The notes under the pieces were generated by a model. The model did not search any database, had not been told where the DNA came from, and saw only the letters and a list, made by a program, of their open reading frames with translations. Shown in pieces: positions 1 through 54,243 of a stretch of 64,000 nt of DNA (the stretch's first letter is position 1; the number at the start of each line of letters is the position of its first letter). The DNA comes from Escherichia phage phi92. The stretch is from sequence record NC_023693.1; one strand, given 5' to 3'. The position numbers and the translations under genes are program-made.

Positions 1-137
1 AGCCTACTTTCTTAAAAGCGCAATAAATCAGAATTATCTTGATTTTTAGTCGGTTTTATAGTATAGAAAATATGTAAATGATAATCATTATCAGCTATCT
101 TCCACGGGTGGCACTATTTCACGCCAGATCATTTCAT

Positions 138-166
138 TTGACAAGGTGTATATAGATGTTTAGACT
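138..166 (+). promoter_or_regulatory. sigma70-like promoter (TTGACA-N17-TAGACT)
   Basis: TTGACA 138-143, 17 bp spacer, TAGACT 161-166; same architecture recurs about 10 times in the window. Confidence 0.35.
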
Positions 167-698
167 TGCCAAGCCATTGATTTACTTAGAATTTATCTGT
201 TTTGTTGTGAGTAGTACCTTTCTTGCTCAGAAAATAATCAAAAGTCTTATAAGTCATTGAATGATAATGCAAATGATAATTATTCTCATTGATATTTGAG
301 GGGGACGGTCGGCAGAAATCGGGGGGCGCTGAAAATCGCGTTAAGCACCTCTCGCAAGCGAGCAGTATTTTGCGGCAAGTTATTGATATTATTGACTTTA
401 CGCTTATGAAAAGGGGGGTGTGTCGAAATAAATCGGGTATACCGGAAAATTTTTGTGGCATAGATATTTATTTGTCTATATTATGTACAAAGGGGGTGTG
501 TTAAAAATATTAGGTATATATAGAATAATTGATAGGGAAATCCTATACTAATTCCTTCATTATTGCAGTGGGTGAAAGACAGAATTGAAGATGCAAATAA
601 TGCTTGCATTGAATAAAAATGTCTGTATAGTGGTTTGCATACCGCGCACGACGCGTTTCCATTTTCAATAAAATGTTAGCATTATGGGGAGGTAGAAA

Positions 699-3306: not shown

Positions 3307-3891
3307 ATGAGTAAAGTTATACCAAGCAGTTATGAATTATTGCAGTTTTATGTATATTACTTAGACTGGGTTAATAGATCGAATGTTAAAGACAATGCGA
3401 TGTTTAGTAAAAACATCTGTTTAACAGAAAGTATCTTCCGTTACTGGCACACAGGTAGAAAGTGTACACACAGTGAAGCTATGCGCATTGTAGGAGAATA
3501 TCTGGAGCAATTGCAAAAAGCAGAGCTACCTGTCCTTCACCCATTCAATGAATCTAAAGAAGAATTAGAACAAGAGTGTAGAGAAGGTAAGTGCCATTTG
3601 AATGAAAAACGTATCGAATGGGTGAGGCAACGTTTAGCCGATGCAGGAAAGACTCCTAGTGACTCTGACTATACGTGGTATGATGTAGAGGGTTTAGTTC
3701 AAGGTTTTGAGGCTTGTGCTATAGATAATACCAACTTTGCCAAAGTTTTATGCGAGGCTTATGACCTGGCAGATAAAATCCGAAATCATGGATGGAAACA
3801 AGAGCATAAAGAATCATATGAACGCCTTGACAAGATTTTCAAACAGATCTATTCTAACCACAAGAAGATGTTCCAAATGGAGGATGTGTAA
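3307..3891 (+). CDS. hypothetical protein (paralog of 2315-2683 product)
   Basis: 194 aa, AAGGAGAGG SD. Confidence 0.6.
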   Translation: MSKVIPSSYELLQFYVYYLDWVNRSNVKDNAMFSKNICLTESIFRYWHTGRKCTHSEAMRIVGEYLEQLQKAELPVLHPFNESKEELEQECREGKCHLNEKRIEWVRQRLADAGKTPSDSDYTWYDVEGLVQGFEACAIDNTNFAKVLCEAYDLADKIRNHGWKQEHKESYERLDKIFKQIYSNHKKMFQMEDV

Positions 3892-4577
3892 TGAAAGAGA
3901 TTATGTTTGAAGGGCATCGTTACGAAGTTCCAGACAATGCAAATTTCATGGCTCGTGATATCACTGGAGATGTGTTCTGGTTTGAAGATGAACCTGTGTT
4001 TTCTTCGAACAAACACTGGTTTTCACAACAATCTTCTTCGGAAAATATGACTTTTGGTTATGTAGAACCTAAAGTGCGCTGCAAAGCAGCTTCTTCTTTG
4101 GTAAAAATTTCCCAAGATGATCAAGAAAATACTCAAGATGTTGTTAGTGCGCTACTGAAGTACATTGCAGAACTTGAGAAGAAAATTAAAGAAGCAGAAA
4201 CTAAGGTGAAAGCACGATCAGCCATCATTGAAGCTATGTCTGAACGTATCTTAGAGCTAGAAGATTTGTGTGGAGAGGCTTATCAAGTGGTCGGTGCACT
4301 GGCTTATGAAGCACAAATGTTTGAAACTTCAGAACAAGTTTCACATATGTTAGATAATTTAAGTGAATGTAAAATGATTCATGATGATGTATTGCCATTT
4401 TGTTGCAATGTTAACAAAACAGAGCAAACAGAAGATTCAGAAACAGTTTATGTTCCGCTGATGTGTGTTCCAGATCATCTAAAAGGTGTATTCTCTTGTA
4501 AATGGTCACTGTTGAGCGTTACTAATTGTGGTGAAAACTATTCTGCCAACATTGAATTGCTAAAACACGTTAAATAA
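3891..4577 (+). CDS. hypothetical protein
   Basis: 228 aa, ATGA start/stop overlap with upstream gene. Confidence 0.6.
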   Translation: MKEIMFEGHRYEVPDNANFMARDITGDVFWFEDEPVFSSNKHWFSQQSSSENMTFGYVEPKVRCKAASSLVKISQDDQENTQDVVSALLKYIAELEKKIKEAETKVKARSAIIEAMSERILELEDLCGEAYQVVGALAYEAQMFETSEQVSHMLDNLSECKMIHDDVLPFCCNVNKTEQTEDSETVYVPLMCVPDHLKGVFSCKWSLLSVTNCGENYSANIELLKHVK

Positions 4578-11536: not shown

Positions 11537-11560
11537 AAACCCGCTTCGGCGGGTTTTCTT
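11537..11560 (+). terminator. rho-independent terminator
   Basis: AAACCCGC-TTCG-GCGGGTTT hairpin followed by TTCTT. Confidence 0.5.
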
Positions 11561-11914: not shown

Positions 11915-11953
11915 AAATAAAGCCCCTAGAATCGCTTCTAGGGGCTTTTGTTT
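11915..11953. terminator. bidirectional rho-independent terminator at the plus/minus convergence point
   Basis: perfect 10 bp stem GCCCCTAGAA-tcgc-TTCTAGGGGC flanked by A-run upstream and TTTTGTTTG downstream. Confidence 0.6.
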
Positions 11954-12285: not shown

Positions 12286-12310
12286 TAAGAAAAGGGGCTT
12301 TCGCCCCCTT
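12286..12310 (-). terminator. rho-independent terminator downstream of Sir2-like gene
   Basis: AAGGGGGCGAAAGCCCCTT hairpin then TTTTCTT on minus strand. Confidence 0.45.
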
Positions 12311-15920: not shown

Positions 15921-15944
15921 CAAAAAACCCGCCGAAGCGGGTTT
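15921..15944 (-). terminator. rho-independent terminator
   Basis: ACCCGC-CGAA-GCGGGT hairpin then TTTTTTG on minus strand. Confidence 0.5.
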
Positions 15945-16205: not shown

Positions 16206-16726
16206 ACAACCTCCTCGTAGTTGTTATTGTGTTTTACTGTCTCAACATACAATAAAGATTCCATCTGTAATACATTACCAGAAACAATAAACCCATAAGC
16301 CATTTCAGATGTGTCTATATCATATGCCCCGTCTTCCGGTTTAGCAAAGTGTAAAACTATTTCATCTGGGTTTTCTTCATCCCATAGTTTAGAAATTTTC
16401 CGAACCAGAATGTTAGCTAAAATAGTTGACATTCGGGATAAAGCTGTATCCTCATATCTTTTAAAACCTAGCCAATAGAGGTTAAGAATTTCTACTTCTT
16501 CTTGTGTTAAGTTTTTGTCTAAAGTAATCAGATCTGTAGAGCACGGCGTTTTTGTTGAACCTACTGTTACAAAACCTGGAGTATTATGAAAAACAATCTT
16601 AACTTTATCACGTATAAAGTTTAAACCTTGTGCCTCAACTATATATTGTATTGTAGGTACAATATCGTTTGTTACATCAATAAAACTATCTTTAATGACG
16701 CTTATATTATTTCTGGACAAGACCAT
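16202..16726 (-). CDS. hypothetical protein
   Basis: 174 aa. Confidence 0.55.
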   Translation of the reverse strand: MVLSRNNISVIKDSFIDVTNDIVPTIQYIVEAQGLNFIRDKVKIVFHNTPGFVTVGSTKTPCSTDLITLDKNLTQEEVEILNLYWLGFKRYEDTALSRMSTILANILVRKISKLWDEENPDEIVLHFAKPEDGAYDIDTSEMAYGFIVSGNVLQMESLLYVETVKHNNNYEEVV

Positions 16727-17285
16727 TCTCCTCTAAAATAGGCTTAATAAATTCGAAAATTTGTTTTTTACTTTTACCTCGAATATTAAAACAAGGAACA
16801 TTAAACTTTTTAGCCAACATCCAAGCTGTTCTTGTACCACCTAAAGGATCTCCATTTTTATCTGTATTTGCACAAGCTAAAAGAAAACAAGATGGTTTTG
16901 GATTCTCAAGATCTCTTCCAAGAACTTGGTGGATATTTCTTTGATGTAATTTTTTAGCACCTTGAGATAATCTGTCCCAAGCTGGATGCAATTCTTTTGC
17001 ATATTGCAAGGTTAGAGCATAGTTTACACTATCTGGTCTGTCAAGAACAATAACCTCTCCCTCTATTTCATTACCTTTAAACGAGAGCCAAGGGATGTAT
17101 ATTTCTTTCTTTGTATTGTTCCCACTATCATATACACCGCATTCAAATGCGGAATCTGCACCTTCTGCTTTACCAGATCGCAAAATGAACCATGTAGATA
17201 GCCATTTTGCAACAGATACCATAGTATCCCATTCTTCGTCTGTAATATCTCTGCTACCAACACCTGTGTAGAATAAATCGCTCAT
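16707..17285 (-). CDS. DprA/Smf-like (SLOG-type Rossmann) nucleotide-binding protein
   Basis: start set at internal ATG 17285 (AAGGAG SD); GVGSRDIT...SGKAEGADSAFECGV resembles DprA/SLOG glycine-rich signature. Confidence 0.4.
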   Translation of the reverse strand: MSDLFYTGVGSRDITDEEWDTMVSVAKWLSTWFILRSGKAEGADSAFECGVYDSGNNTKKEIYIPWLSFKGNEIEGEVIVLDRPDSVNYALTLQYAKELHPAWDRLSQGAKKLHQRNIHQVLGRDLENPKPSCFLLACANTDKNGDPLGGTRTAWMLAKKFNVPCFNIRGKSKKQIFEFIKPILEENGLVQK

Positions 17286-17295
17286 GGTTTTCTCC

Positions 17296-17616
17296 TTAAC
17301 AAGTAATATTGGGAGTAACAATTGGATTAACAATTGGAGTGATAGGGTACGTAAACCAAGGGCTTCCAATTTCCCAAGGACTATAAGGTCTACGAGGATC
17401 AAATGGAGGAGTTACTTCAGGCTTTTTCCAAATCTCCGCTAGTTGTTTCTTCCATTTATCCCTTGCTGTCTCATTATCTTCATCCAACTGTTCATCATTA
17501 TCTTTTATTTCTGGTTTTGGAAATAAAAGCTCTTTGACTAACTCAACATCTTCCGTCTCAATAGTAGTTTCTTTCGTAAGTTCTCCTACTGTTTCTTTAA
17601 TTGTGATTTTATACAT
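17296..17616 (-). CDS. hypothetical protein
   Basis: 106 aa. Confidence 0.5.
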   Translation of the reverse strand: MYKITIKETVGELTKETTIETEDVELVKELLFPKPEIKDNDEQLDEDNETARDKWKKQLAEIWKKPEVTPPFDPRRPYSPWEIGSPWFTYPITPIVNPIVTPNITC

Positions 17617-18362
17617 TAATCCTCCTCTAAAGTAGAATAAAATTGTAACGTATTTGAATCATCAAAATATGCAAAGGTTAAATTACCATTGAAGCAAGAT
17701 CCTGTGTCCATATATACCCTATTACTGCTAATCACAGGTTTAGGAACATAAGAATGCCCGTGAAATACATAATCTACTCCTGAAACCCTAGGAAGAAGAA
17801 TCCCTTCAAGTGCGCAATCTATCATATCACGATCCCACATTAAAGATTCTGTGAATCGAGATACTTGCTCTTTATTCATATTCAAACAAAATGGCAAAAC
17901 TTCTGTCACTGGTAAATGTTCCAAAACTGAAGGATACCCACCGTGAATAAAGCCTAGTTTCATATCACGATAATTGACAACAAGTACAACAGGTAAATCT
18001 TCTAGCATCAAAGCAAGAGCAGTTGCACCCTCTTCTCCACACTCGTCTAGAACTGTATGGCCTCCGTTCTGAAACCAACATTCGTAATATCGTCTATCAC
18101 CTTCTAGCAACCCTTTAATCATCATATCTTCATGATTTCCACGAATACCATAACGATTTAGCTTTCTGGTGAATTCAACAACACAACGAAAATTCTGCTT
18201 GCCGCGATCTGTAAGATCTCCTAAAGATACAACAACATCTTGATCTCGGATACCTAAAGTATTAACACCTTTCTGGTACAAATCAAAGCAACCATGTAAA
18301 TCACCAATAATAAACAGGTCTTGATCATCTTTTACACTAATTTCTTGATATACTAGCATCAA
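17616..18362 (-). CDS. Ser/Thr protein phosphatase (calcineurin-like metallophosphoesterase)
   Basis: GDLHG, GDLTDRG, GNHE metallophosphatase motifs. Confidence 0.75.
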   Translation of the reverse strand: MMLVYQEISVKDDQDLFIIGDLHGCFDLYQKGVNTLGIRDQDVVVSLGDLTDRGKQNFRCVVEFTRKLNRYGIRGNHEDMMIKGLLEGDRRYYECWFQNGGHTVLDECGEEGATALALMLEDLPVVLVVNYRDMKLGFIHGGYPSVLEHLPVTEVLPFCLNMNKEQVSRFTESLMWDRDMIDCALEGILLPRVSGVDYVFHGHSYVPKPVISSNRVYMDTGSCFNGNLTFAYFDDSNTLQFYSTLEED

Positions 18363-18685
18363 CTCTCCTCAAAATCCATAAGTATAAAGATATTAACTTT
18401 ACCTTCTATATTATGTTCTACAACAAGATCTGCAAATTCTTTGTAGGCTTTTTCTTCTATTTGTTCAATGTGAGACGCTACATCTTTGTATATAGCGTCA
18501 CCATCTACTTTAACAAGGAGGAATAGAGATCTTACTTCAATCTCTTTATTTTTACGGGGTAGAAAATCGACGGCTTCTTGTATACGCCAGCCGAGATACC
18601 CTGGAGTCCTTTGAATATCCTCCAAATGACTTTCTAAGATTTCCCTTCCTTTGTCTATTAAAGCCTGTTCTGTCGTTATTTTCAT
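18359..18685 (-). CDS. hypothetical protein
   Basis: 108 aa. Confidence 0.5.
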   Translation of the reverse strand: MKITTEQALIDKGREILESHLEDIQRTPGYLGWRIQEAVDFLPRKNKEIEVRSLFLLVKVDGDAIYKDVASHIEQIEEKAYKEFADLVVEHNIEGKVNIFILMDFEES

Positions 18686-18695
18686 CCCCTTCTCC

Positions 18696-19268
18696 TTAAT
18701 GTGTTAATGAAACTGCGTAACTAAACACAGGTTCAGATATTACATCGGCTACAGTAATAAAAACGTCTTCGTCTTGAGTTGTTTCTACACGACATACAGT
18801 TACACCATTCACCACGAATTCAACGCAATGTGGAATATCTTCACAAACGAAGGTAGTGTAAGTAACACCCAAAGCATCATACAAAGATTTAACAGTGTTT
18901 GCAAGTGCCGCAGTTTCTTCTTTTTCTGAGACAATGAATGCTGTAACAACAAGATTGTTTGCATAGTTTAGACTGTCCTCTATAGCCAATGATTTACAAG
19001 GTAGTAATGCAAAATATTTACCTGGTTTAATCAGACCTGCTTCCCATTGATTCAAAATTGCTTGGGATGGTTTAGTAATATAAAACAGATTTTCACTTGG
19101 GTTATCAATATTACTTCTGGCGATACAACGTGAAGGATTATTAATATCAAACACATGATCAAAATCTACACAAACTGGTAAACTGAAAGGTGTGAATTTT
19201 TTACCTAATAATCCTACTGCTGACAATATGTTTGCTGTGCTTATCTTCCCGTTAAAAGCTAAACGCAT
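18696..19268 (-). CDS. hypothetical protein
   Basis: 190 aa. Confidence 0.55.
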   Translation of the reverse strand: MRLAFNGKISTANILSAVGLLGKKFTPFSLPVCVDFDHVFDINNPSRCIARSNIDNPSENLFYITKPSQAILNQWEAGLIKPGKYFALLPCKSLAIEDSLNYANNLVVTAFIVSEKEETAALANTVKSLYDALGVTYTTFVCEDIPHCVEFVVNGVTVCRVETTQDEDVFITVADVISEPVFSYAVSLTH

Positions 19269-19279
19269 ATTTAACTCCT

Positions 19280-19483
19280 TTAACTAGCAACCGTAACTTC
19301 CGAACTTTCTTCTTTCGTACTGTCTACGATATGCCTGGTGGCAATATACGAGACTTGCCAGTTACCATCTGGTGTAGTCTCAATAAGTACCCTATCTACT
19401 TCGAGAAAATGCAAAAATTCAACCATCGCTCGCTTCGATAGGAATTGTTTTTTAACAGTCTCCTCAAAAGATTGAACTGCCAT
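19280..19483 (-). CDS. hypothetical protein
   Basis: 67 aa. Confidence 0.45.
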   Translation of the reverse strand: MAVQSFEETVKKQFLSKRAMVEFLHFLEVDRVLIETTPDGNWQVSYIATRHIVDSTKEESSEVTVAS

Positions 19484-19492
19484 GTTTCCTCC

Positions 19493-20155
19493 TTATTTAA
19501 TATTCAATTTTGCACAAAGACGTTGTACCGCTTTGGCATCGAACAAACTCCCACGAATAGTTCTCTTTCCTGATTCATTCAGATGTTTTGCAATCGTCAT
19601 ATATGGCGTTTTACAAGCTCTGTATGCAACTAAAGAATCTTTTAAAGAAAGCGCAAACTCTTTTGAGCGTTTTGCTTCTTCCGTTTTCGTATAATCTGTT
19701 CTTTTGTATTTAGGGTTTGCTGCACCAAGAAGCGTTCCCTTCGCTTTTGCTACTTTAAGGCTCTTCTTAACACGATCAGATATTGCACGAGCCTCTTCTT
19801 CTGCCAGAACTGCTAAAATATTTATTATCATATTTTCAGCGGAGGGCATAGTTGCTATTCGTACATTAATCATCTCTAACAAGGTTGCAACAGAAGCTGT
19901 GTTACGTCCAAGACGGTCAACCTTAGCAACAACAAGTGTAGCACCTGTTTCTTTGCAAAGATTAACAGCTTTTACAAGCTCTCTACGTTGCTTCCAATCG
20001 CCTTTACCCGAATAAAACTCTGCAAAGCTACCTACAATAGTATAATTTTCTTGTGAATCCAGGAAGCGTTGAATATCTGCTTCCTGTGACTCTATACCAT
20101 ACTGGTTGCCTTGTTGTTTCTTCTTAGAAAGTCGATGATATAGTACAAACTTCAT
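19493..20155 (-). CDS. serine recombinase (resolvase/invertase family)
   Basis: N-terminal YHRLS...Q, LVVAKVDRLGRN, ILAVLAEEEARAISDRVK...AKG blocks typical of resolvase catalytic domain; basic C-terminus. Confidence 0.6.
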   Translation of the reverse strand: MKFVLYHRLSKKKQQGNQYGIESQEADIQRFLDSQENYTIVGSFAEFYSGKGDWKQRRELVKAVNLCKETGATLVVAKVDRLGRNTASVATLLEMINVRIATMPSAENMIINILAVLAEEEARAISDRVKKSLKVAKAKGTLLGAANPKYKRTDYTKTEEAKRSKEFALSLKDSLVAYRACKTPYMTIAKHLNESGKRTIRGSLFDAKAVQRLCAKLNIK

Positions 20156-20212
20156 AATACCCTCCTGTTCTGTTACAGGAAGTATGCACTACCTTAATGT
20201 TAAAGTCAACAG

Positions 20213-20416
20213 TTAAGTAGTGGTAATATCATCCTCTTGAATACTAGGGTCAACTTCTGCAAAGATAGCCTCTACAGGAATTTCTTCACCTGCTATTCTA
20301 GAAAGAAGCACGGAACCAATAGCTTTTGCGTGTTCTTCGGATTCCGCATAAACATTAGTTCCTGTGTCTTTTTTCTTAGTTTCGTTAAAATATACCAGAT
20401 AGTAATTGTATGCCAT
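20213..20416 (-). CDS. hypothetical protein
   Basis: 67 aa. Confidence 0.4.
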   Translation of the reverse strand: MAYNYYLVYFNETKKKDTGTNVYAESEEHAKAIGSVLLSRIAGEEIPVEAIFAEVDPSIQEDDITTT

Positions 20417-20667
20417 TATTCATCCCAATCGCCGTTACGAGCACTTTCAAGAACCTTGACAACTTCTGCATACTCTACAGCTAAACCAGCACATACTTCA
20501 GCTTGTTTTGCAATTGCTTGTTTAAAGAACATAGCGATTGCAACACTCTGTGTTGTGTGAATGTTATCTGCTTTAGTTGATACATGAAGATCAAAATCTT
20601 CTTCATCAAAGGTGAGTTCCATAGTAACAATAAATTTCTCGGTCATAAAAATGCTCCTCTTAAACAA
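20416..20667 (-). CDS. hypothetical protein
   Basis: 83 aa. Confidence 0.45.
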   Translation of the reverse strand: MFKRSIFMTEKFIVTMELTFDEEDFDLHVSTKADNIHTTQSVAIAMFFKQAIAKQAEVCAGLAVEYAEVVKVLESARNGDWDE

Positions 20668-21169
20668 AATAGAAAGGTTGAGTTAAACCCAGCCTGTTTT
20701 TTGGGTCGTAGACGTACCAAGCATATGCTGTCTTATCAGTACCACCTGCAACAAAAGATGGTCGTTCAGAAAGAACAATCAAATTTGTTGGTGGATTCTG
20801 TTTATGGAATTCCCTTCGTTTAATAGACTCTAGGAACCCAAGACGCAACAAGTATATGCAAACGTCTGCTTCTTTTAAGCTCTTTTGCAAGAACTCAAGT
20901 GCAAGTCTGAATGGTGGATTTGTGATTATAATATCCGGCTTAGTATGCCATTCGTGGTTAAAATAATCCTTCCCTTCTTCTAACTCACAATATTCTGATC
21001 CTTCTGGAAAATGTTGATAAATTGCAGCAGCAGCACCTTTACACGGTTCTGCAAAAATAAAACCTTCTTCTTTAAGGTTATTAAAATCTATTACACTAAA
21101 TAATGCATTTATACATTTTTGTGGAGTAGGATAGTAATCAGTTGGTGGACGATCATACTTATTTGCCAC
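20660..21169 (-). CDS. DNA N6-adenine methyltransferase (phage Dam-like)
   Basis: DYYPTP and IITNPPF (motif IV) in a 169 aa protein. Confidence 0.65.
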   Translation of the reverse strand: MANKYDRPPTDYYPTPQKCINALFSVIDFNNLKEEGFIFAEPCKGAAAAIYQHFPEGSEYCELEEGKDYFNHEWHTKPDIIITNPPFRLALEFLQKSLKEADVCIYLLRLGFLESIKRREFHKQNPPTNLIVLSERPSFVAGGTDKTAYAWYVYDPKNRLGLTQPFYFV

Positions 21170-21587
21170 TACTTAAAATCTCCTCTTTTGTGATTTCAGG
21201 GTCTTCTTCAAAAACCATAATATCTCTTAAGAACGTTAATTCTTCCATAGATACTGGTATTGTATCTTCTTCTGTTTTTCGTTTACATAAATCGTCAAGA
21301 AAGTTTTTAAAGTTTTCTGACAAATCGTAAAATTTCAACAGTTGATAATCACAGGAGGAGATCCTATCCAGTTCTAACATTCTTTCTAAGATATTTTCTG
21401 TGTTGCCATACAGCACACGAACTTCTCCGAAAGGGTTGACTGAATATTGTGAAGTTCTGAACCATCCCTTTTTAGATACAGTGTAACGCTGTTCTGCTAA
21501 ACTTTCAATAAAATTTTTAGCTCTTTTACAGTTTTGTTCTAAAGAGTAGTAGGCTTTTTCTACAAAGGTTACAGGTACTGGTAACAT
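21159..21587 (-). CDS. hypothetical protein
   Basis: 142 aa. Confidence 0.5.
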   Translation of the reverse strand: MLPVPVTFVEKAYYSLEQNCKRAKNFIESLAEQRYTVSKKGWFRTSQYSVNPFGEVRVLYGNTENILERMLELDRISSCDYQLLKFYDLSENFKNFLDDLCKRKTEEDTIPVSMEELTFLRDIMVFEEDPEITKEEILSSGK

Positions 21588-23569: not shown

Positions 23570-23598
23570 TCCTTATAAAAGGGGCTTTCGCCCCTTTG
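23570..23598 (-). terminator. rho-independent terminator
   Basis: AAAGGGGCGAAAGCCCCTTT hairpin then TTTTATAAGG on minus strand. Confidence 0.5.
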
Positions 23599-29931: not shown

Positions 29932-29960
29932 TAAAAATTCTCCTCAATAAAAAGGGGCCG
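29932..29960 (-). terminator. rho-independent terminator
   Basis: AAGGGGTTTCGGCCCCTT hairpin then TTTTATTG on minus strand. Confidence 0.5.
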
Positions 29961-29974
29961 AAACCCCTTGATGT

Positions 29975-30631
29975 TTAGCCTTGGAACACTGTTTTTGTTT
30001 CTGCCAAGTGATAGTATAAATCTGCCTTGTTTATAAGAGTGTTGTATACCTCTTGACAAAAATGTTCTTCCTCTTTGTAACGATTCGCTGTTTCCCTGAT
30101 CGACTTGGCTTTATCTTTTAACCAAGCGAAGTGTGCCTCTTCCTCTGTAGCGAAATAGCCTAAATGCTTGCTTTTGCTTCCAGAAGTTTTGGCATAAATC
30201 TTGCCATCTTTCCTAATATGCGCTCCGAGTAAGTATTTCCTTTTATGTCTCTTGGCATAACTTAAAAGTGTATTGATATAGGGAGGAACAAACCTACAAT
30301 ATTCAGGACAATAGACAGTATTTCCCTCAAGAACAAGATCTTTGTCTAAAACAAAACCTTCGACATTGTGTTCTTGATACCAATTATCAAAATTTGAAAA
30401 AGTAAACCAAGCATCACAGACGGTAACATCTTTATACCCTGGTCTAATATCTTCCATCTTATATGCACGATGAAACATGCCTTTCCAAGCTGCATAGGAA
30501 GGGTCTATGAATGTGTTAACCCTTTTCCCGTTGACAACGCCACCTTCCCACAATCTACGTTCAACATCCACAATCAAGGGGATTTCTCCCCTCTCTGTGA
30601 GAACAGTAACTTTACGTTTACCCTTCTTCAC
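29975..30631 (-). CDS. putative homing endonuclease with AP2-type DNA-binding domain
   Basis: HLGYFATEEEAHFAW AP2-like block; free-standing ORF between nrdA and nrdB. Confidence 0.5.
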   Translation of the reverse strand: MKKGKRKVTVLTERGEIPLIVDVERRLWEGGVVNGKRVNTFIDPSYAAWKGMFHRAYKMEDIRPGYKDVTVCDAWFTFSNFDNWYQEHNVEGFVLDKDLVLEGNTVYCPEYCRFVPPYINTLLSYAKRHKRKYLLGAHIRKDGKIYAKTSGSKSKHLGYFATEEEAHFAWLKDKAKSIRETANRYKEEEHFCQEVYNTLINKADLYYHLAETKTVFQG

Positions 30632-30639
30632 CTGTCCTC

Positions 30640-32904
30640 CTACATTTTACAGGCGCTACACCCCTCGTCTTCAGAATCTTCTTGAGCGAGTGAGGATGCC
30701 GATTTTGTTCTGCTATTTAGATAGTACAAAGATTTACCACCAAGTTTTGCAAACTGAAGAATATATTGCATTTCTGATTTAATGGATAAACGACCACCTT
30801 CCATCTTAGAATAGTCAATCCACTTATCACATGATGCACCTTGATCTAAGAATTTAGTCAACAGTCCATATGCTTCAGCCATATCTTTATCTGGTGTATC
30901 CCAAGCCGATTGGTAAATATCTTTTAGTTTATCGTAGTCTGGCACAATAAACAGAACATTACCCTTTTGGCTTTGTTTATAAACTATAGTATCACGTACA
31001 GGATACACAGAGTTAGTCGTATTACTTACAAGACTACTGGACTCATTTGGAGCAATAGCTGCTAATACGCTATTTCGGATACCACCTTGTGCAATGATAT
31101 CTTGTCGTAAACCTTCCCAATCCATTTTAAGTTTAAAATTGCCAATATCGTCTACAGCTTTAGCGTAGGTATCAATAGGCAACCATCCTTCAGGCCATTT
31201 GGTTTTATGCATCCATTCTGCATTACCTTTCTCTTTTGCCAAACGAAGAGAAGCTCTTGCTAACCAGTAATAATGCCTTTCTGCTAATTCGTGAATTAGT
31301 TTTTTGCCGTAAGGATCTGAATAAGTAACAAAATTACTTGCCAGATAATGTGCAAGGTTTGTAATACCTACACCGATAGACCTACGTGCTTTAGCAGTGA
31401 TTTCGTTATGTTTAAACGGATACTGCATTGTTTCAATAACATTATCAATAGTTAGAACGGTATAGTATGCAACATCTTCATATTCTTCTGGTGTAACACG
31501 ACCAGCTACAATAGAAGACAGGAAGCATAATGCCAATTCTTGATCTTCTGTATTCTCACCTGTGAAAAGATCAGTCATATTGTGAAATGCTTTCGTAGGT
31601 AAGAAAATTTCTTGGCACAAGTTTGACTGATAAATAACATCCTTAAACGGGGTATGTTTATTAGCATTATCCGCAAAGAACATATAAATACGTCCTGTCT
31701 CTGCTCTTTGTGTAATAATTTCTGCCAGAAGATCTCGTGCTTTTACAAACTTTTTCTTAATTCGTTTGCGACTAACTTTTTCATATACTTCTTCAAACTC
31801 TTCCTCGCTTTTATAAAGCGCATCATAGAGTTCTGGTGCTTCGTCATAACTAACTAGCATCCAATCTTTACCTTTTGCTGCACGGCGCAGGAAAGCATTG
31901 TTTACTACGATAGAGTAATCAAGTTTATCTACTCGTTTTTCACTAACAGTAGTTGGGTTTTTCAAACGTACCAGATCTTCAAAATCAGGTTCTAGTATTG
32001 TAAACGTTACTGTTGCACTTCCACCACGACTTGCTTGTTTTGATGCTCCAACACTTGTCTCCATCCATTTCAGATATGGTAAAAGACCACCGTGAACGAT
32101 ACGGTTGTTCTTAACACCTTGTCCTGTGGCACGGGTTTGAAGGTTAACACCAATACCTGCATTATTCAATGTATATTCATGCGCAAGATAGTTAGCAATT
32201 GCTAAAGATTCTGCTGTATCGTCTGCTCTAAACAGACAACAAGAAGCACTACCTTTAATCTTAGTACGCAAAGTTGTTAAATAAGGCGATGGTAAATTAA
32301 TCTTAAGATCACTTACGTAGGTATATAGACGTTTAATGTCTTCTACTCTGCGATCTTTTGGTTGGATTTCCATTACCTTCATTGCTACACCAATGAATAA
32401 AAACTGTGGTGATTCAAAAACAACATCATTGATCGCATCTTTCACAAGATACTTATCAACCATCTGGCGCAGTACGGAATAACCATAAGTTAGGTTTTTA
32501 TCGTGATTGACAATTTTACCAATCTCAATAATTTCTTCTTCTGTATAATCCATTTTTCCCCAATAGCCTTTACTTACAGACATATTGTAGAAATCCAGGA
32601 GGGAGGGGATATTGTGATATCCCCCATGAGCCTGTTTATAAATCATACCAAGAAGTAACCGACCTGCCATATCACTATATGCCTGATCTTTCTTATCAAT
32701 ACATGCTGCTATCATAGCTTTATGTAAATCACGAGTAGGCACACCGTCGTAACAACGTTTAACAGCTTCGAGTTCAATTTCAGACCAATTTAATTTACCA
32801 GCAGCAAACTCTGACCATTTACGAAGTTTTTCTGGATTAAATTCTTCTTTCTTGCCGTTTGTTTTTGTTACATAACGGATAGATTTGCTTAGATACTGAG
32901 TCAC
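30640..32904 (-). CDS. nrdA: ribonucleotide reductase large subunit (class Ia)
   Basis: 754 aa; SNLCQEIFLP active-site Cys block, N-terminal ATP-cone-like region. Confidence 0.9.
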   Translation of the reverse strand: MTQYLSKSIRYVTKTNGKKEEFNPEKLRKWSEFAAGKLNWSEIELEAVKRCYDGVPTRDLHKAMIAACIDKKDQAYSDMAGRLLLGMIYKQAHGGYHNIPSLLDFYNMSVSKGYWGKMDYTEEEIIEIGKIVNHDKNLTYGYSVLRQMVDKYLVKDAINDVVFESPQFLFIGVAMKVMEIQPKDRRVEDIKRLYTYVSDLKINLPSPYLTTLRTKIKGSASCCLFRADDTAESLAIANYLAHEYTLNNAGIGVNLQTRATGQGVKNNRIVHGGLLPYLKWMETSVGASKQASRGGSATVTFTILEPDFEDLVRLKNPTTVSEKRVDKLDYSIVVNNAFLRRAAKGKDWMLVSYDEAPELYDALYKSEEEFEEVYEKVSRKRIKKKFVKARDLLAEIITQRAETGRIYMFFADNANKHTPFKDVIYQSNLCQEIFLPTKAFHNMTDLFTGENTEDQELALCFLSSIVAGRVTPEEYEDVAYYTVLTIDNVIETMQYPFKHNEITAKARRSIGVGITNLAHYLASNFVTYSDPYGKKLIHELAERHYYWLARASLRLAKEKGNAEWMHKTKWPEGWLPIDTYAKAVDDIGNFKLKMDWEGLRQDIIAQGGIRNSVLAAIAPNESSSLVSNTTNSVYPVRDTIVYKQSQKGNVLFIVPDYDKLKDIYQSAWDTPDKDMAEAYGLLTKFLDQGASCDKWIDYSKMEGGRLSIKSEMQYILQFAKLGGKSLYYLNSRTKSASSLAQEDSEDEGCSACKM

Positions 32905-37000: not shown

Positions 37001-37033
37001 TCCAAAAATAAAGGGGCTTTCGCCCCTTTTTAT
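37001..37033. terminator. rho-independent terminator (hairpin with T-runs on both sides)
   Basis: AAAGGGGCTTTCGCCCCTTT flanked by A-run and TTTTTATT. Confidence 0.5.
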
Positions 37034-37995
37034 TAAATTCCAATAACAGTGTTTACACGCTTCTCTTTGCTACGCAAATTAACACGTCCACGAGACAGGC
37101 TATTACATGATGTGCATCTTAGCACTTGGAATGTACTAACCGCTGTTGTGTAAACCTTACCAGGAACAAATTCAAGGTGCTCTTTACCGCAACGAGGACA
37201 ACGAAGTTTTTCATCGTCATAGAATGCAGATACGTTAGGATGTTGTGGAATCCATGCACGAAGTTTGATGTAAAGATCTCTAAGAGAAACAACATCACCA
37301 TCGTTGTATGTTTGCATACGGAAGAAGGCATGTCTATCTCCTTCACAACATGCTTTCCACAAAGGAAAACCTTCATTATCAAGTTTAAAGTTTTCTGTAT
37401 CAAAATACAAACACATTTCTTTAAGCGCATTAGAAGGTAGTGCAAACTGCTTCTTAGCTGCCTTGAGTGTATCAATTACAACATAATGTGATGGTGGCTC
37501 CATACCGTGAAAAGCAAAACGTTGGTTAATATAAGCCTTATCAAACTTAATACCGTTGTGCGCGATCACAATATCTGCATCGTCAAGCAAGTGCCAGAGA
37601 TCTTGACATAATTCCCAATCATCTGTATGATCTATGTCAAACAAAGGGTAATTGCTAAGGTTCTTACCTTCTACTTCCCCTGTTTCTAAATCAGCAGATG
37701 AATAGGAAAGCAAGTAACCTCGACGAATAACTTGTTCAGGTGCAATAAAGGCTTTGAAACGTGAGAAGCTATACACAATCTCCGGTGCTGTCTCTACGTC
37801 AATAATTTTAATTACTGGCCCACCTTTATCTTGCGGAGCACCGCGATGTGGTGAATTTACACGAGCTAAGTAATCATTTACTGTGCTCTTCTTAGTAGAA
37901 CTTCCCAACACCTCTTGTGCAATCTTACGCGAAGAATAACCTTGTGCTTTCATAGATACAATCAAGGCTTTCTGTTCGTCTGTTAATTTACTCAA
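37033..37995 (-). CDS. DnaQ/RNase-H-fold 3'-5' exonuclease with C-terminal zinc ribbon
   Basis: IIDVETAP (Exo I-like), IAHNGIKFDKAYI (Exo II-like), CPRCGK...CTSCN. Confidence 0.55.
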   Translation of the reverse strand: MSKLTDEQKALIVSMKAQGYSSRKIAQEVLGSSTKKSTVNDYLARVNSPHRGAPQDKGGPVIKIIDVETAPEIVYSFSRFKAFIAPEQVIRRGYLLSYSSADLETGEVEGKNLSNYPLFDIDHTDDWELCQDLWHLLDDADIVIAHNGIKFDKAYINQRFAFHGMEPPSHYVVIDTLKAAKKQFALPSNALKEMCLYFDTENFKLDNEGFPLWKACCEGDRHAFFRMQTYNDGDVVSLRDLYIKLRAWIPQHPNVSAFYDDEKLRCPRCGKEHLEFVPGKVYTTAVSTFQVLRCTSCNSLSRGRVNLRSKEKRVNTVIGI

Positions 37996-51624: not shown

Positions 51625-51700
51625 GGTTCCATAGCTCACTGACGAGAGCGCACACCTCATAAGTGTCGAGGGCAGGGATTGTAACCCTGGGGAACCACCA
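51625..51700 (+). tRNA. tRNA-Met/Ile2-like (anticodon CAT), non-canonical T-loop
   Basis: manual fold: acceptor GGTTCC/GGAACC, D-stem GCTC/GAGC, anticodon loop CTCATAA, T-stem CAGGG/CCCTG with loop ATTGTAA, CCA encoded. Confidence 0.5.
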
Positions 51701-51731
51701 TTTAAAAGGAGGTGCTATGCATCTCCTATAT

Positions 51732-51817
51732 GCAAGTGTGGTGGAATTGGTGATACACATTGTGCTTAAAACGCAACGCTTAAATGCTTGAGGGTTCGAA
51801 TCCCTCCACTTGCACCA
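51732..51817 (+). tRNA. tRNA-Leu (anticodon TAA)
   Basis: manual fold: acceptor GCAAGTG/CACTTGC, anticodon stem TTGTG/CGCAA, loop CTTAAAA, long variable arm, T-arm GAGGG-TTCGAAT-CCCTC, CCA. Confidence 0.7.
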
Positions 51818-51833
51818 ACACCTAAAAAATATC

Positions 51834-51862
51834 TTGACATTTACTTAGTTTTTTGTTATAGT
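51834..51862 (+). promoter_or_regulatory. sigma70-like promoter (TTGACA-N17-TATAGT)
   Basis: immediately upstream of tRNA-like element at 51874. Confidence 0.45.
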
Positions 51863-51873
51863 TACTATGAAAA

Positions 51874-51955
51874 CGGGGTGTATCTCACCTGACTTCTAAT
51901 CAGGCGTTAACCGAGTAATTGGAGTATGCAGGTTCGAATCCTGTCACCCCGGCCA
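51874..51955 (+). tRNA. tRNA-like element, identity unresolved (candidate anticodon loop CTTCTAA)
   Basis: acceptor CGGGGTG/CACCCCG, T-arm GCAGG-TTCGAAT-CCTGT, CCA; perfect hairpin CCTGA-CTTCTAA-TCAGG but no D-arm found by eye. Confidence 0.4.
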
Positions 51956-51973
51956 AAAAGTTTTAAAAACTAC

Positions 51974-52002
51974 TTGACAAGCAAGATAGTTTTATGTTAG
52001 AT
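51974..52002 (+). promoter_or_regulatory. sigma70-like promoter (TTGACA-N17-TTAGAT)
   Basis: upstream of tRNA-Ser at 52019. Confidence 0.4.
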
Positions 52003-52018
52003 TTAAAGTATGATAACT

Positions 52019-52108
52019 GGAAGGTAGGGCGCAGCGGTGCGCAACCAGGTTTGAACCCTGGCCCATTGTAGCGATACGGTGATGGTTCGACTCCATTATC
52101 TTCCTCCA
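52019..52108 (+). tRNA. tRNA-Ser (anticodon TGA)
   Basis: manual fold: acceptor GGAAGGT/ATCTTCC, anticodon stem CCAGG/CCTGG loop TTTGAAC, long variable arm, T-loop TTCGACT, CCA. Confidence 0.65.
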
Positions 52109-52114
52109 AATTCA

Positions 52115-52279
52115 ATGAGTGATTTTATGAATTATAAAACTATTGGACAGGTTGTTACCGGAGTTAAGATTGTAAATAATAAAGTTGTTTATGAGTATTC
52201 TAATCTTCAACAATCTGAAGATGGTAAGAATATTCGTATGGTAAAAACAGAACAAAAAGATTCCGGTTGTTTTGAATAA
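52115..52279 (+). CDS. small hypothetical protein inside tRNA cluster
   Basis: ORF between tRNAs; start uncertain (ATG 52115 or 52127); weak SD. Confidence 0.3.
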   Translation: MSDFMNYKTIGQVVTGVKIVNNKVVYEYSNLQQSEDGKNIRMVKTEQKDSGCFE

Positions 52280-52287
52280 TTAAAAAC

Positions 52288-52373
52288 GGTAGATTGGTGA
52301 AATGGTAGCCACAACAGTTTGCTAAACTGTCGTCGGAAACGGCGTGTAGGTTCAAGTCCTACATCTACCGCCA
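52288..52373 (+). tRNA. tRNA-Ser (anticodon GCT)
   Basis: manual fold: acceptor GGTAGAT/ATCTACC, anticodon stem ACAGT/ACTGT loop TTGCTAA, long variable arm, T-arm GTAGG-TTCAAGT-CCTAC, CCA. Confidence 0.7.
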
Positions 52374-52507
52374 AGTTATCTTTAATGTAGCTTGTAATCT
52401 TACTTTAGCAGAGTAAACTTTCGGCAGATGGTGGCAGCCATTTTACCGATACCCCAATACTTCATAGCTAAGTGCCGCAAACACTGGCTATTTTAAAGAT
52501 AATTTAT

Positions 52508-52583
52508 ACATCGTTAGCTTAGTTGGTAGAGCAAGGGTCTTTTAACTCCAAGGTCGAAGGTTCGAATCCTTCACGATGTACCA
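52508..52583 (+). tRNA. tRNA-Lys-like (anticodon TTT), weak anticodon stem
   Basis: perfect acceptor ACATCGT/ACGATGT, D-arm GCTTAGTTGGTAGAGC, loop CTTTTAA, T-arm GAAGG-TTCGAAT-CCTTC, CCA; anticodon stem only about 3 bp. Confidence 0.55.
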
Positions 52584-52588
52584 AACAT

Positions 52589-52675
52589 GTAGGTATCGCA
52601 TAGCGGCAATTGCTGGAGACTGTAAATCTCTTGCCCTTCGGGGCTTCGTTGGTTCGAGTCCAACTACCTGCACCA
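52589..52675 (+). tRNA. tRNA-Tyr (anticodon GTA)
   Basis: manual fold: acceptor GTAGGTA/TACCTGC, anticodon stem GGAGA/TCTCT loop CTGTAAA, long variable arm, T-loop TTCGAGT, CCA. Confidence 0.65.
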
Positions 52676-52682
52676 AATTAAA

Positions 52683-52767
52683 GATGGATTGGCCTAGTGG
52701 TTGGGCGACGGACTGTTAATCCGTGAACGAAAGTTCTAGCAAGGTTCAAATCCTTGATCCATCGCCA
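52683..52767 (+). tRNA. tRNA with Asn anticodon (GTT) on a class-II (long variable arm) body
   Basis: manual fold: acceptor GATGGAT/ATCCATC, 3 bp D-stem, anticodon stem ACGGA/TCCGT loop CTGTTAA, variable arm hairpin GAAC-GAAA-GTTC, T-arm CAAGG-TTCAAAT-CCTTG, discriminator G, CCA. Confidence 0.55.
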
Positions 52768-52772
52768 TATAG

Positions 52773-52840
52773 TGCTTGTAGAGTTAATAGAAACCTCTAG
52801 AATTTTCTAGAATTGTAGGTATCAAATCCTACCAAGCAAA
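52773..52840 (+). tRNA. degenerate tRNA-like remnant (possible pseudo-tRNA)
   Basis: T-arm-like GTAGG-TATCAAAT-CCTAC with 8 nt loop, no CCA, overlapping TCTAGA inverted repeats instead of a clean anticodon arm. Confidence 0.2.
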
Positions 52841-52846
52841 TATTTT

Positions 52847-52921
52847 GCTCCTATCGTATAACGGCTATTACGGTTGCCTTGTAAGCAACTTATCAGGGTT
52901 CGAGTCCTTGTGGGAGCACCA
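52847..52921 (+). tRNA. tRNA-Thr (anticodon TGT)
   Basis: manual fold: acceptor GCTCCTA/TGGGAGC, anticodon stem GTTGC/GCAAC loop CTTGTAA, T-loop TTCGAGT, CCA. Confidence 0.7.
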
Positions 52922-52943
52922 ATTTAACTCTAAAGGAGTGTAT

Positions 52944-53267
52944 GTGACAGAAAAAGAGTTAGAGAAATATTTTAATATCAATGTTTTCGATGGTTTTGAT
53001 GATATTGAAGATGTTGAAAGATATTATGAAGTAGAGTTAGATAAGGATAACATTGTAATTCTTTCTGCCACTTATGATTGTGCATATTATGAAGGTGAAT
53101 CTCACGTTTATTTCTATGATATGAAAACATCTTTGTTTTATGAAGTACACGCATATCATTGTTCTTGTTATGGCTTAGAAGGTCAGTGGGAACCTGAAGA
53201 AATAGGTGATTTGGACTTTACTATTGCATATCTAAACAGACGTGGTGCATCTACTATTTTAAAATAA
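52944..53267 (+). CDS. hypothetical protein inside tRNA cluster
   Basis: GTG start after AAAGGAG SD; in frame with track ORF 52845-53267, whose 5' part overlaps tRNA-Thr. Confidence 0.45.
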   Translation: MTEKELEKYFNINVFDGFDDIEDVERYYEVELDKDNIVILSATYDCAYYEGESHVYFYDMKTSLFYEVHAYHCSCYGLEGQWEPEEIGDLDFTIAYLNRRGASTILK

Positions 53268-53281
53268 ATATTAAAAGCCTC

Positions 53282-53311
53282 TTGACAAAGGGGCTAATAA
53301 TATGTTAGAGT
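53282..53311 (+). promoter_or_regulatory. sigma70-like promoter (TTGACA-N18-TAGAGT)
   Basis: upstream of tRNA-Gly. Confidence 0.45.
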
Positions 53312-53322
53312 AATATTGTTAA

Positions 53323-53397
53323 GCGGGTATAGTGTTAATGGTAGCATATGAGGTTTCCACCCTCCAGGTGCAGGTTCAAGTCCTGTTACTCGCTCCA
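53323..53397 (+). tRNA. tRNA-Gly (anticodon TCC)
   Basis: manual fold: acceptor GCGGGTA/TACTCGC, anticodon loop TTTCCAC, T-arm GCAGG-TTCAAGT-CCTGT, CCA. Confidence 0.6.
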
Positions 53398-53828
53398 AGA
53401 TTATTTAAATGGAATCGCTAGAGAAAATTTCTCTTTTCGCTCATGGTTTTCTCCTTCAAACTCTAGCGGTTCTTTTTAAGTGATTTTTTAGTTTATTGGA
53501 GATTCACTGCCTTAGTGTGAGCTAAAATCGAGGAGCCATCGAACTGTCTGATTAATGATTTGCGAATCATTATAGTTTTAAGACCCCGGCAGTTTTATGG
53601 TGTACCTCTTGAATGTGAATGATGACGGGTTTATGGTTATCCTGGTCGTTAAATATCCAAAAACCTATGTTCCCCTTGAGGGCTTGCGCAGGCAATGCCA
53701 ATAAGTCCTGCATTTTCATTTAAAAGAGAATTTATAATGGAAAAAGATGAACTTAAGTATGCTAAGCCTCTGGCTTCTGCTGCACGAAAAGCAGTTCGTC
53801 ACTTTGTGGTAACACTGAAGTAATTTAT

Positions 53829-53903
53829 TGGAGATTGGCCTAGTGGGAAGGCAACGGCCTTTGAAGTCGTGATGACTAGGTTCGATTCCTAGATCTCCAG
53901 CCA
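53829..53903 (+). tRNA. tRNA-Gln (anticodon TTG)
   Basis: manual fold: acceptor TGGAGAT/ATCTCCA, anticodon stem ACGGC/GTCGT loop CTTTGAA, T-arm CTAGG-TTCGATT-CCTAG, CCA. Confidence 0.65.
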
Positions 53904-53910
53904 AGATTTA

Positions 53911-53986
53911 CAGTGCGTAGCGCAGTTGGTAGCGTGGGAGCCTTGGACGCTTCAGGTCGCAGGTTCGAGTCCTGCCGCACTGACCA
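53911..53986 (+). tRNA. tRNA-Pro (anticodon TGG)
   Basis: manual fold: acceptor CAGTGCG/CGCACTG, anticodon loop CTTGGAC, T-arm GCAGG-TTCGAGT-CCTGC, CCA. Confidence 0.65.
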
Positions 53987-53991
53987 AATTT

Positions 53992-54066
53992 GCAGAGATA
54001 GCTGAGACGGATTAGTGCTACCCTGAAAAGGTAGAAAGGATGGATCGTTACCATCTCTCTGCACCA
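53992..54066 (+). tRNA. tRNA-Phe (anticodon GAA), atypical T-loop
   Basis: manual fold: perfect acceptor GCAGAGA/TCTCTGC, anticodon stem CTACC/GGTAG loop CTGAAAA, T-arm GATGG-ATCGTTA-CCATC, CCA. Confidence 0.6.
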
Positions 54067-54143
54067 AATAACACCATCCAAGGAGAATACTTGGTTAACT
54101 GTCAATAGCACATTGAGGCTTCTTACAGTGGTGTACTTATTAT

Positions 54144-54228: not shown

Positions 54229-54243
54229 AATTATTACAAGTTT

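Follow-up and report, generated by a model that had tools for sequence, protein, structure and literature searches.

A small, intact serine recombinase conserved in phi92-like lytic phages of Escherichia coli, and its possible resolvase-type role

The phi92-like phages carry a genuine, intact small serine recombinase. The DNA analysed here (the window) comprises the left 64 kb of a Justusliebigvirus genome, a group of phi92-like E. coli myoviruses of the Stephanstirmvirinae with genomes of ~147 kb. A resolvase-type reaction on the phage's own DNA is the most likely role of the enzyme. We give this reading a probability of roughly one in three; both the target site and the function are inferred, and we consider inversion or integration less likely. 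Neither the gene nor the kind of system is new: the gene is already public, and over 100 lytic E. coli phages of the phi92 type carry an annotation for it.

The gene, its protein and the class of recombinase

The features of the gene and of the encoded protein are as follows.

19493..20155, minus strand: coding sequence of the small serine recombinase, stop codon included (ORF call, Pfam PF00239, RefSeq label 'DNA invertase')
19733..20155, minus strand: catalytic domain and helix E, residues 1-141 (Pfam match to residues 4-141, alignment, AF2, Foldseek)
20126-20128, minus strand: codon of the nucleophile Ser10 (family alignment)
19496..19678, minus strand: predicted C-terminal four-helix DNA-binding domain, residues ~160-220 (AF2, PF07508 in relatives)

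The ORF list of the window gives an ATG-started ORF of 220 aa at this place, and the motifs MKFVLYHRLS, VAKVDRLGRN and LAEEEARAISDRVKKSLKVAKAKG are all present in its translation. Its counterparts are JR317_gp047 of phage PHB05 and the homologue gp052/053 of phi92. An earlier reading, made from the sequence only, had described the product as a resolvase-type serine recombinase, and this was borne out by Pfam, PHROG, the fold and the catalytic residues. PF00239 (Resolvase) matched residues 4-141 (E=8.4e-22; 78.3 bits against a cut-off of 23.3) and was likewise matched by every member of the family (39/39), and PHROG 125, 'DNA invertase', matched the recombinase at 1.3e-31. The best sequence relatives in the PDB were Sin, Tn3 resolvase, gamma-delta resolvase and Gin; with the family profile, the E values were 2e-16 for Sin, 4e-16 for Tn3 resolvase and ~1e-15 for Gin. 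The protein also has the size of a resolvase or invertase rather than that of a large integrase, as the same reading had stated, with 220 aa compared to integrase/excisionase models of 465-542 positions.

Besides Ser10, the key residues of the catalytic domain are Arg8, Asp80/Arg81/Arg84 and Glu121/Arg128. Loss of the catalytic Ser/Arg residues had been named beforehand as grounds for rejecting the assignment; these residues are instead conserved in the family alignment, which holds 39 sequences and reaches down to relatives of ~31% identity. D80, R81, R84, E121 and R128 are invariant in this alignment, and Y6, R8 and S10 are retained in at least 90% of it, the exception being an N-terminally truncated entry. 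In the family profile, R8 and S10 pair with R7 and S9 of Sin, and E121 and R128 with E118 and R125 of gamma-delta resolvase. Equivalents were found for the whole catalytic set in Tn3 numbering (R8, S10, D67, R68, R71, E118 and R125). Because the catalytic Ser/Arg set is kept across the family, the recombinase looks catalytically competent.

The AlphaFold (AF2) model built from the 39-sequence alignment had a mean pLDDT of 88.8 and displayed the resolvase core with the beta1-Ser loop, and residues 108-138 formed a long helix E. When this model was submitted to Foldseek, the significant matches were all serine recombinases, with a probability of 1.00 for Sin, gamma-delta resolvase and Bxb1; the top match was Bxb1, a large serine integrase that aligned over 248 columns (E=1.9e-7).

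The C-terminal helices of the model (residues 162-170, 172-180, 185-194 and 207-216) had pLDDT values above 90. The first half of PF07508 'Recombinase' (approximately positions 5-51 of 102) was matched by 28 of the 39 family members, among them the ESCO13, 05F01, Shewanella and Vibrio orthologues; for the window protein itself, no match to PF07508 reached E=0.1. No Hin- or resolvase-type HTH was recognised in the window protein by Pfam, and a zinc ribbon, a coiled coil and the second half of the recombinase domain are absent from its 220 aa. The best NCBIfam model was CcrB, which covered residues 4-212 with 35.8 bits against a cut-off of 900, and the scores for the Mpi invertase (33.5 bits, cut-off 272) and for YneB (29.8 bits, cut-off 175) were similarly far below threshold. 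The protein is best described as a catalytic domain followed by what is predicted to be a minimal integrase-like helical DNA-binding module. Assignment to the Hin/Gin invertases, the Tn3 resolvases or the large integrases was considered, and none of these classes fits, as the C-terminus, the scores and the context differ. The architecture is a common one: with a threshold of E<=1e-10, an exhaustive search returned 2,556 cluster representatives; among the best 150 of these listed, most are 210-245 aa long and match end to end. None of the ~220-aa relatives tested was placed in a curated NCBIfam family.

Comparison with the known systems places the protein between the established groups. Like the Sin (pI9789/Tn552), Tn3 and gamma-delta resolvases of ~200 aa, it has a catalytic domain, helix E and a DNA-binding domain in last position, and it shares with the small resolvases the catalytic Arg/Ser, the DRLGR motif and the Glu/Arg pair on helix E. 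It differs from them in that the identity is only ~25%, Ser10 is followed by a longer loop (KKKQQGNQYGIESQ), the C-terminus resembles the start of PF07508 and not the resolvase/Hin HTH, and the gene is without an upstream res site, a transposase or a plasmid context. With Hin, Gin, Cin and Pin, it has in common that it is a phage-borne small serine recombinase but, unlike them, it has neither an invertible segment beside it nor 26-bp inverted crossover sites, and a Hin-type HTH and isomers are absent as well; P1 Cin was aligned by tblastn only over residues 44-157, with 32% identity. The likeness to the large serine recombinases (Bxb1, phiC31, TP901-1, CcrB, XisF) lies in the Foldseek match to Bxb1, the NCBIfam match to CcrB and the first half of PF07508, whereas the length of 220 aa and the lack of an attP, a recombination directionality factor and lysogeny set it apart. 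The full two-domain architecture is found in the ~220-aa 'recombinase family proteins' of Phaeobacter piscinae pP18_i and Synechococcus elongatus pIITB3_2 but, unlike the phage gene, these are bacterial plasmid genes located beside Rep and ParA/RHH partition genes.

Distribution, selection and gene neighbourhood

The window shares 97-99% identity with Justusliebigvirus phages, and the first 64 kb of vB_EcoM_PHB05 are collinear with it. The recombinase is 100% identical in 54 phage records, where it is labelled DNA invertase, resolvase, recombinase family protein, site-specific recombinase or hypothetical protein. In Phapecoctavirus, an intact orthologue, at least 99% identical in 63 records, shows 57% identity to the window protein, and an intact protein is also encoded by phAPEC8. 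Essentially all Stephanstirmvirinae records found carry the gene. Only Schickermooser and one other record have a disrupted copy, whose 5' part contains several frameshifts; the frameshifted Schickermooser copy means that the gene is not strictly essential.

Relative to PHB05, the gene has eight synonymous and no non-synonymous differences, while the window DNA differs by ~2.5%. The comparison with the orthologue of Klebsiella phage phi1_175008 (78% identity) gave a dN/dS of ~0.06, with dS saturated. The GC content is 38.3% for the gene and 37.1% for the window. Judged by these substitution patterns, the recombinase is under strong purifying selection. The gene of Klebsiella phage 05F01 is a mosaic, in which the C-terminal part is ~64% and the catalytic domain ~27% identical to the window protein; the catalytic domain is of the classic YxRVSTxxQ type. 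Because both halves of the 05F01 protein are still serine-recombinase-like, selection seems to act on the complete enzyme with this binding domain.

The neighbours of the gene are as follows.

20213..21169, minus strand: upstream neighbours in the MTase-x-x-REC sub-module, namely a 169-aa N6-adenine-type DNA methyltransferase (20660-21169) and ORFs of 83 aa and 67 aa (tblastn, annotation)
16707..19483, minus strand: downstream neighbours, namely ORFs of 67, 190 and 108 aa, a NinI-like Ser/Thr phosphatase, a 106-aa ORF and a DprA-like protein (synteny)

By tblastn of the neighbouring ORFs, the order of the module is PhoH - o164 - HslV - o142 - N6A-MTase - o83 - o67 - REC - o67 - o190 - phosphatase - o106 - DprA, and the whole module is collinear in Klebsiella phi1_175008. 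Rearranged versions can still be recognised in two more Klebsiella phages, 05F01 and FBKp34, as well as in the marine Shewanella phage 1/4 and a metagenomic phage contig of 75 kb. The MTase-x-x-REC order was also found by tblastn in the metagenomic phage contig. In 05F01 and FBKp34, the MTase is followed by a small ORF and then by REC, without matches to the 83-aa and 67-aa ORFs, and in Shewanella phage 1/4 the recombinase is followed by one small ORF and then by DprA. In Phapecoctavirus, the orthologue is placed elsewhere, within a group of small early genes; more distant phages have the recombinase gene beside NAMPT/rII genes. We considered that the gene might adjoin a physical genome end in FBKp34 or phiWec190 and discarded this idea, both record starts being arbitrary. 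No transposase or transposon ends were found near the gene, which is surrounded by phage genes (MTase, phosphatase, HslV, PhoH and DprA).

A remnant of a mobile-element insertion had been among the explanations offered by the sequence-only reading. It is disfavoured by the background GC content, the purely synonymous differences from PHB05, the low dN/dS and the conserved position in the module. A recent insertion or a decaying remnant is unlikely because the gene appears to be kept in a conserved module, with a promoter of its own and under purifying selection. A broader form of this explanation is a selfish or leftover gene, either a free-standing mobile cassette or an element remnant, that brings no benefit to the phage. 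A promoter of its own would suit such a gene, as would the different positions in Justusliebigvirus, Phapecoctavirus and the distant phages with NAMPT/rII neighbours, the mosaic in 05F01 and the frameshifts in Schickermooser. We nevertheless regard it as unlikely, given the strong purifying selection, the identity within each genus (put at 100%, the Phapecoctavirus records being at least 99% identical), the presence in essentially all Stephanstirmvirinae records found, the background GC, the lack of flanking repeats and a synteny that reaches the Shewanella phage; moreover, a catalytic site that is intact at 31% identity is unlike that of a decaying remnant.

Expression, lysogeny and the search for recombination sites

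Two expression signals lie immediately upstream of the gene.

20181..20209, minus strand: candidate sigma70-like promoter, with -35 TTGACT at 20204-20209, a 17-nt spacer and -10 CATACT at 20181-20186 (consensus scan, 9/12)
20160-20165, minus strand: RBS GGAGGG, 5 nt upstream of the start codon

The intergenic space upstream of the gene measures 57 bp and consists essentially of the promoter-like site and the RBS. Taken alone, the match in the promoter scan is weak, as 59 such sites were found versus 47 expected. The Klebsiella phage orthologue has TTGACA-17-CATACT in the same place upstream, and TTGACA-type sites also precede the gene in FBKp34 and Shewanella phage 1/4. Host RNA polymerase probably transcribes the gene from this promoter of its own, and early. 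A res site (three dyad subsites, ~120 bp) was not found in the 57-bp space. A small hairpin, CCTGT-N6-ACAGG, is present upstream in the window and is not conserved in the Klebsiella orthologue, and no operator-like dyad conserved across the orthologues was found in the promoter region.

The promoter region bears on a further explanation, according to which the protein would be mainly a sequence-specific DNA-binding regulator, or would have some other non-recombination role, with catalysis secondary. The Tn3 and gamma-delta resolvases are known autorepressors, Tn3 resolvase repressing its own promoter. The position of the phage gene directly behind its own promoter is in line with such a role, and so is the fact that no recombination site could be found (see below). 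The invariant catalytic residues and the serine-recombinase-like catalytic domain of 05F01, on the other hand, point to selection on the chemistry, and the negative result of the search for a conserved operator-like dyad also counts against a regulator. A mainly regulatory role is, in our view, quite unlikely.

Phages of this group have been described as lytic (PMC12210895, PMC11841896, PMC5374246). The earlier observation that the genome has no other lysogeny signals held true in the RefSeq annotation of PHB05 (97% identical), which lists no integrase or repressor and contains no att feature. Window positions 18500-21500 gave no match, either integrated or on a plasmid, in 5,426 complete E. 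coli genomes. Nothing links the recombinase to lysogeny. On the evidence here, the gene does not appear to be an integrase, because it is without integrase-specific domains, an att/repressor partner and prophage copies.

The enzyme could also act on host DNA, through cryptic lysogenic or carrier integration or by rearranging or excising defence islands, prophages or invertible switches. The probable early expression from a host-type promoter would agree with this, as would the relationship of the DNA-binding domain to that of large serine integrases and the search of the phage genome, which gave no target. Large serine integrases, however, use a zinc ribbon and a coiled coil for att-site recognition and directionality. 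The phage protein is without either, and its 220 aa match the models of 465-542 positions only in part. The region gave no match in the 5,426 complete E. coli genomes, the annotation includes neither a repressor nor an attP-like element, and the phages are reported to be lytic (PMC12210895, PMC5374246). We judge a host-DNA target very improbable.

The sites themselves were sought in the phage genomes. An invertase is expected to have an inverted pair of ~26-bp sites, usually next to the gene, and a resolvase is expected to have a res-like cluster upstream. The search for inverted-repeat crossover sites that the sequence-only reading had proposed as a check was run on the window and on PHB05, and none were found; specifically, repeat searches and self-BLAST detected no hix/gix-like inverted-repeat pair in either the window or the complete PHB05 genome. 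Within 6 kb of the gene, only weak, chance-level inverted repeats were present, with 70-86% complementarity and located inside coding sequence. The repeat searches of the window, of the 12 kb around the gene and of PHB05 gave only terminator hairpins, a single tandem duplication of 590 bp and repeated early promoters, which carry a conserved 5' hairpin. Enumeration of dyads in PHB05 (11-bp arms with at least 10 matching positions, spacers of 0-8) gave 45 compared to 16-19 in shuffled sequence, many of them G+C-rich, terminator-type hairpins. Across the complete PHB05 genome, none of the dyad-symmetric motifs occurs more than once, no two dyads being alike, and no dyad near the gene is shared across seven lineages.

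A comparison of public assemblies served as a computational substitute for the long-read check suggested with the sequence-only reading. The 54 Justusliebigvirus assemblies are collinear over window positions 1-25 kb and over the 25-kb tail-fibre region, extra 'places' in the comparison occurring only where the record ends cut a match. No inversion isomers were found among the 54 assemblies in window 1-25 kb or in the tail region; for window 25-64 kb, the comparison covered summary counts and top rows only and is hence weaker. Like the site searches, the isomer comparison has limited power against short or weakly symmetric sites. In the tail region, the differences between isolates are module replacements and not inversions, and all tail genes lie on one strand.

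An inversion switch, which the sequence-only reading had put forward, found no support, there being no inverted-repeat pair, no isomers and no Hin-type HTH. A DNA invertase that flips a phage segment such as a promoter or a tail-fibre module, in the manner of Gin, Cin and Hin, is the least probable of the explanations considered: the 'DNA invertase' label in many GenBank/RefSeq records and in PHROG 125 stems only from generic homology, and although alternative tail fibres and spikes are numerous in phi92-like phages, and small elements with short, imperfect repeats would escape the searches used, the Mpi model scored 33.5 against 272 bits, the C-terminus is PF07508-related without a Hin-type HTH, no inverted-repeat pair exists in the genome apart from terminator hairpins, the tail genes share one strand and the 54 assemblies are collinear (window 1-25 kb and tail region).

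A proposed resolvase-type reaction on phage DNA

The nearest non-phage full-length homologues found by tblastn (~35% identity over 98-100% of the length) are located on small plasmids; on the 7.3-kb Phaeobacter plasmid pP18_i, for example, the recombinase is found with Rep, ParA and an RHH protein. Serine recombinases of ~220 aa in a plasmid setting typically resolve multimers, as in Sin, beta recombinase and the ParA-type systems. By analogy, the plasmid homologues would be expected to resolve multimers as well.

The genome of phage BME3 has 342-bp direct terminal repeats (PMC12210895), and Stephanstirmvirinae genomes are generally reported to end in direct terminal repeats (PMC12695924). The 342-bp repeat of BME3 maps to window positions 76-415. 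With such repeats, directly repeated DNA is present at the genome ends and therefore at concatemer junctions. It is the combination of plasmid homologues beside Rep/ParA with direct terminal repeats that favours a resolvase-type reaction, and the resolution of direct repeats fits the data because such a reaction leaves no orientation polymorphism. The resolution of replication or concatemer intermediates was one of the roles suggested by the sequence-only reading; we regard it as the best guess on the remaining evidence, including the plasmid homologues by Rep/ParA.

The terminal repeat was also considered as the location of a recombination site. Its conspicuous dyads match the 19-bp Fur-box consensus and have odd symmetry; they were rejected because a serine recombinase with a 2-nt stagger would not use odd symmetry. 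No obvious even-spaced dyad was found in the 342-bp repeat.

If the enzyme works as other members of its family do, dimers would bind a dyad-symmetric site via the C-terminal helical domain, and two bound sites would synapse to form a tetramer. Ser10 would then cut all four strands, giving phosphoserine links and a 2-nt staggered double-strand break, and one half of the tetramer would rotate by 180 degrees before religation. Recombination between directly repeated copies of the site on phage DNA could convert replicative multimers or circles to unit forms, or could cyclise or re-join genomes with direct terminal repeats.

Several observations stand against a resolvase-type reaction. No candidate site was found, the upstream space has only 57 bp, the gene is located elsewhere in Phapecoctavirus and the Schickermooser copy is frameshifted; in addition, the homologues on plasmids share only ~35% identity with the phage protein, and what they do is likewise deduced from context. 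Phages T7 and T5 have fixed terminal repeats and both replicate and package their DNA without a site-specific recombinase, so that no need for resolution is established. One paper guesses, without data, that the gene keeps concatemers as single genomes (PMC10282059). Our literature search found annotation-level mentions only, and no functional study or strand-exchange experiment on this recombinase.

A more specific variant is suggested by Cre. Phage P1 Cre acts at sites in terminally redundant DNA, where it cyclises the incoming genome and resolves dimers. A functional analogy to Cre-lox, and only a functional one, is conceivable here given the 342-bp direct terminal repeats; Cre differs in being a tyrosine recombinase and in coming from a temperate plasmid-prophage, and the search of the terminal repeat here gave no site. 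A lytic phage might accordingly use a stripped-down serine recombinase as an early Cre-lox-like function on its own DNA, or for rearranging host DNA, an idea that we consider improbable. In the Cre-lox-like form, a catalytic domain with half of an integrase DNA-binding domain would cyclise the incoming genome or convert replication products. To our knowledge, no serine recombinase of a virulent phage has been assigned such a role.

The presence of this gene matters for phage-therapy screens, in which recombinase genes are commonly treated as markers of a temperate lifestyle. Justusliebigvirus and Phapecoctavirus phages have repeatedly been proposed as therapeutics, and the recombinase here does not appear to be an integrase. 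The reason why a virulent phage group conserves an intact site-specific recombinase would inform our understanding of phage DNA processing.

Variant recombinase genes and record labels

Two relatives carry divergent versions of the 220-aa serine recombinase:

Klebsiella phage 05F01, 2908-3579 of the examined stretch (L013): syntenic recombinase, mosaic gene
Phage Schickermooser, 3800-4546 of the examined stretch (L007): Phapecoctavirus orthologue with several frameshifts in the 5′ third

In the 05F01 protein, the C-terminal DNA-binding part shares ~64% identity with the window protein, against just ~27% for the N-terminal catalytic domain. This catalytic domain belongs to the classic YxRVSTxxQ type and has Ser at the Asp position of the DRLGR motif. 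The alignment of the Schickermooser gene with that of ESCO13, which carries the orthologue, required 8 gap openings over 806 bp, and because of the frameshifts the catalytic Ser is no longer in the reading frame. The orthologue is intact in 63 other records. The Schickermooser copy reflects either sequencing error or a natural, rare pseudogene.

Several Phapecoctavirus records (for example, NC_052662.1, OR352956.1, and MW175890.1) label the recombinase 'methionine ABC transporter ATP-binding protein', which is a propagated mis-annotation. Five "Campylobacter phage" records with C. jejuni as the stated host (MG065639, MG065645, MG065650, MG065656, and MG065689) are 96-98% identical to E. coli Justusliebigvirus/Phapecoctavirus genomes; the most likely explanation is that they are coliphages that were mislabelled or present as contaminants.

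tRNA genes, hairpins, and length differences from PHB05

The following features were mapped in the window and in the 97%-identical relative vB_EcoM_PHB05 (PHB05):

Window 51625-54544: cluster of 15 tRNA genes
Window 11537-11556, 15925-15944, 11919-11948, 12292-12310, 23578-23597, and 37009-37034: recurrent G+C-rich hairpins
PHB05 81,755-82,934 (L002 31755-32934): perfect 590-bp tandem duplication between the tail-spike and baseplate genes

Within the tRNA cluster, the gene at 52508-52583 was assigned an abnormal two-base anticodon by ARAGORN. The recurrent hairpins, which include AAACCCGCTTCGGCGGGTTT and AAAGGGGCTTTCGCCCC, are the source of the top-scoring 'repeats' of the window. Among them is a 30-bp perfect palindrome located at the switch between rightward and leftward gene blocks. 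These hairpins resemble intrinsic terminators that are shared and in part bidirectional.

The tandem duplication in PHB05 doubles a gene for a small membrane protein, whereas only one copy is present at this site in phage inny; the duplication may be an assembly artefact or real. Near the gene for the ribonucleotide reductase (RNR) small subunit, the window is ~350 bp longer than PHB05 (29949-30676): the aligned blocks on either side are 727 bp apart in the window and 379 bp apart in PHB05.

Candidate regulatory regions and Fur-like sites

Two further features of PHB05 lie outside the window:

PHB05 137.24-137.64 kb (L003 37240-37640): three iteron-like direct repeats of ~60 bp each, within an 800-bp non-coding stretch
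PHB05 138.6-145.9 kb (L003 38620-45875): at least five early-type promoters, TTGACA-N17-TAATAT-like

The iteron-like repeats (ttatttaaagttttt...gaaaatgaaaagttcaa) are followed by a dense cluster of AT-rich dyads (ATTCTCATTTGTAAATGAGAAT, TTATCATTTAATTATGTAAATGATAA, and others) that are also Fur-box-like, and then by a foreign-looking G+C-rich segment. A role as an origin or in regulation is possible for this non-coding stretch. Each of the early-type promoters is followed by one and the same 5′ hairpin, GGCGGG(G)AAATGGTTTCCCGCC; a search of the window for this motif gave no matches with three or fewer mismatches.

Phage BME3 has an annotated direct terminal repeat of 342 bp (PMC12210895), which maps to window 74-415 with 96.5% identity. 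This match places the start of the window ~75 bp outside the physical left genome end. The opening bases of the repeat are a near-consensus Fur box (window 74-92, GTAAATGATAATCATTATC), with 2 mismatches to the consensus against a chance expectation of 0.03 matches, and a second Fur-like cluster was found at window ~260-295 (ATGATAATGCAAATGATAATTATTCTCATT). It is possible that the genome end or the early promoters are under iron-responsive control.
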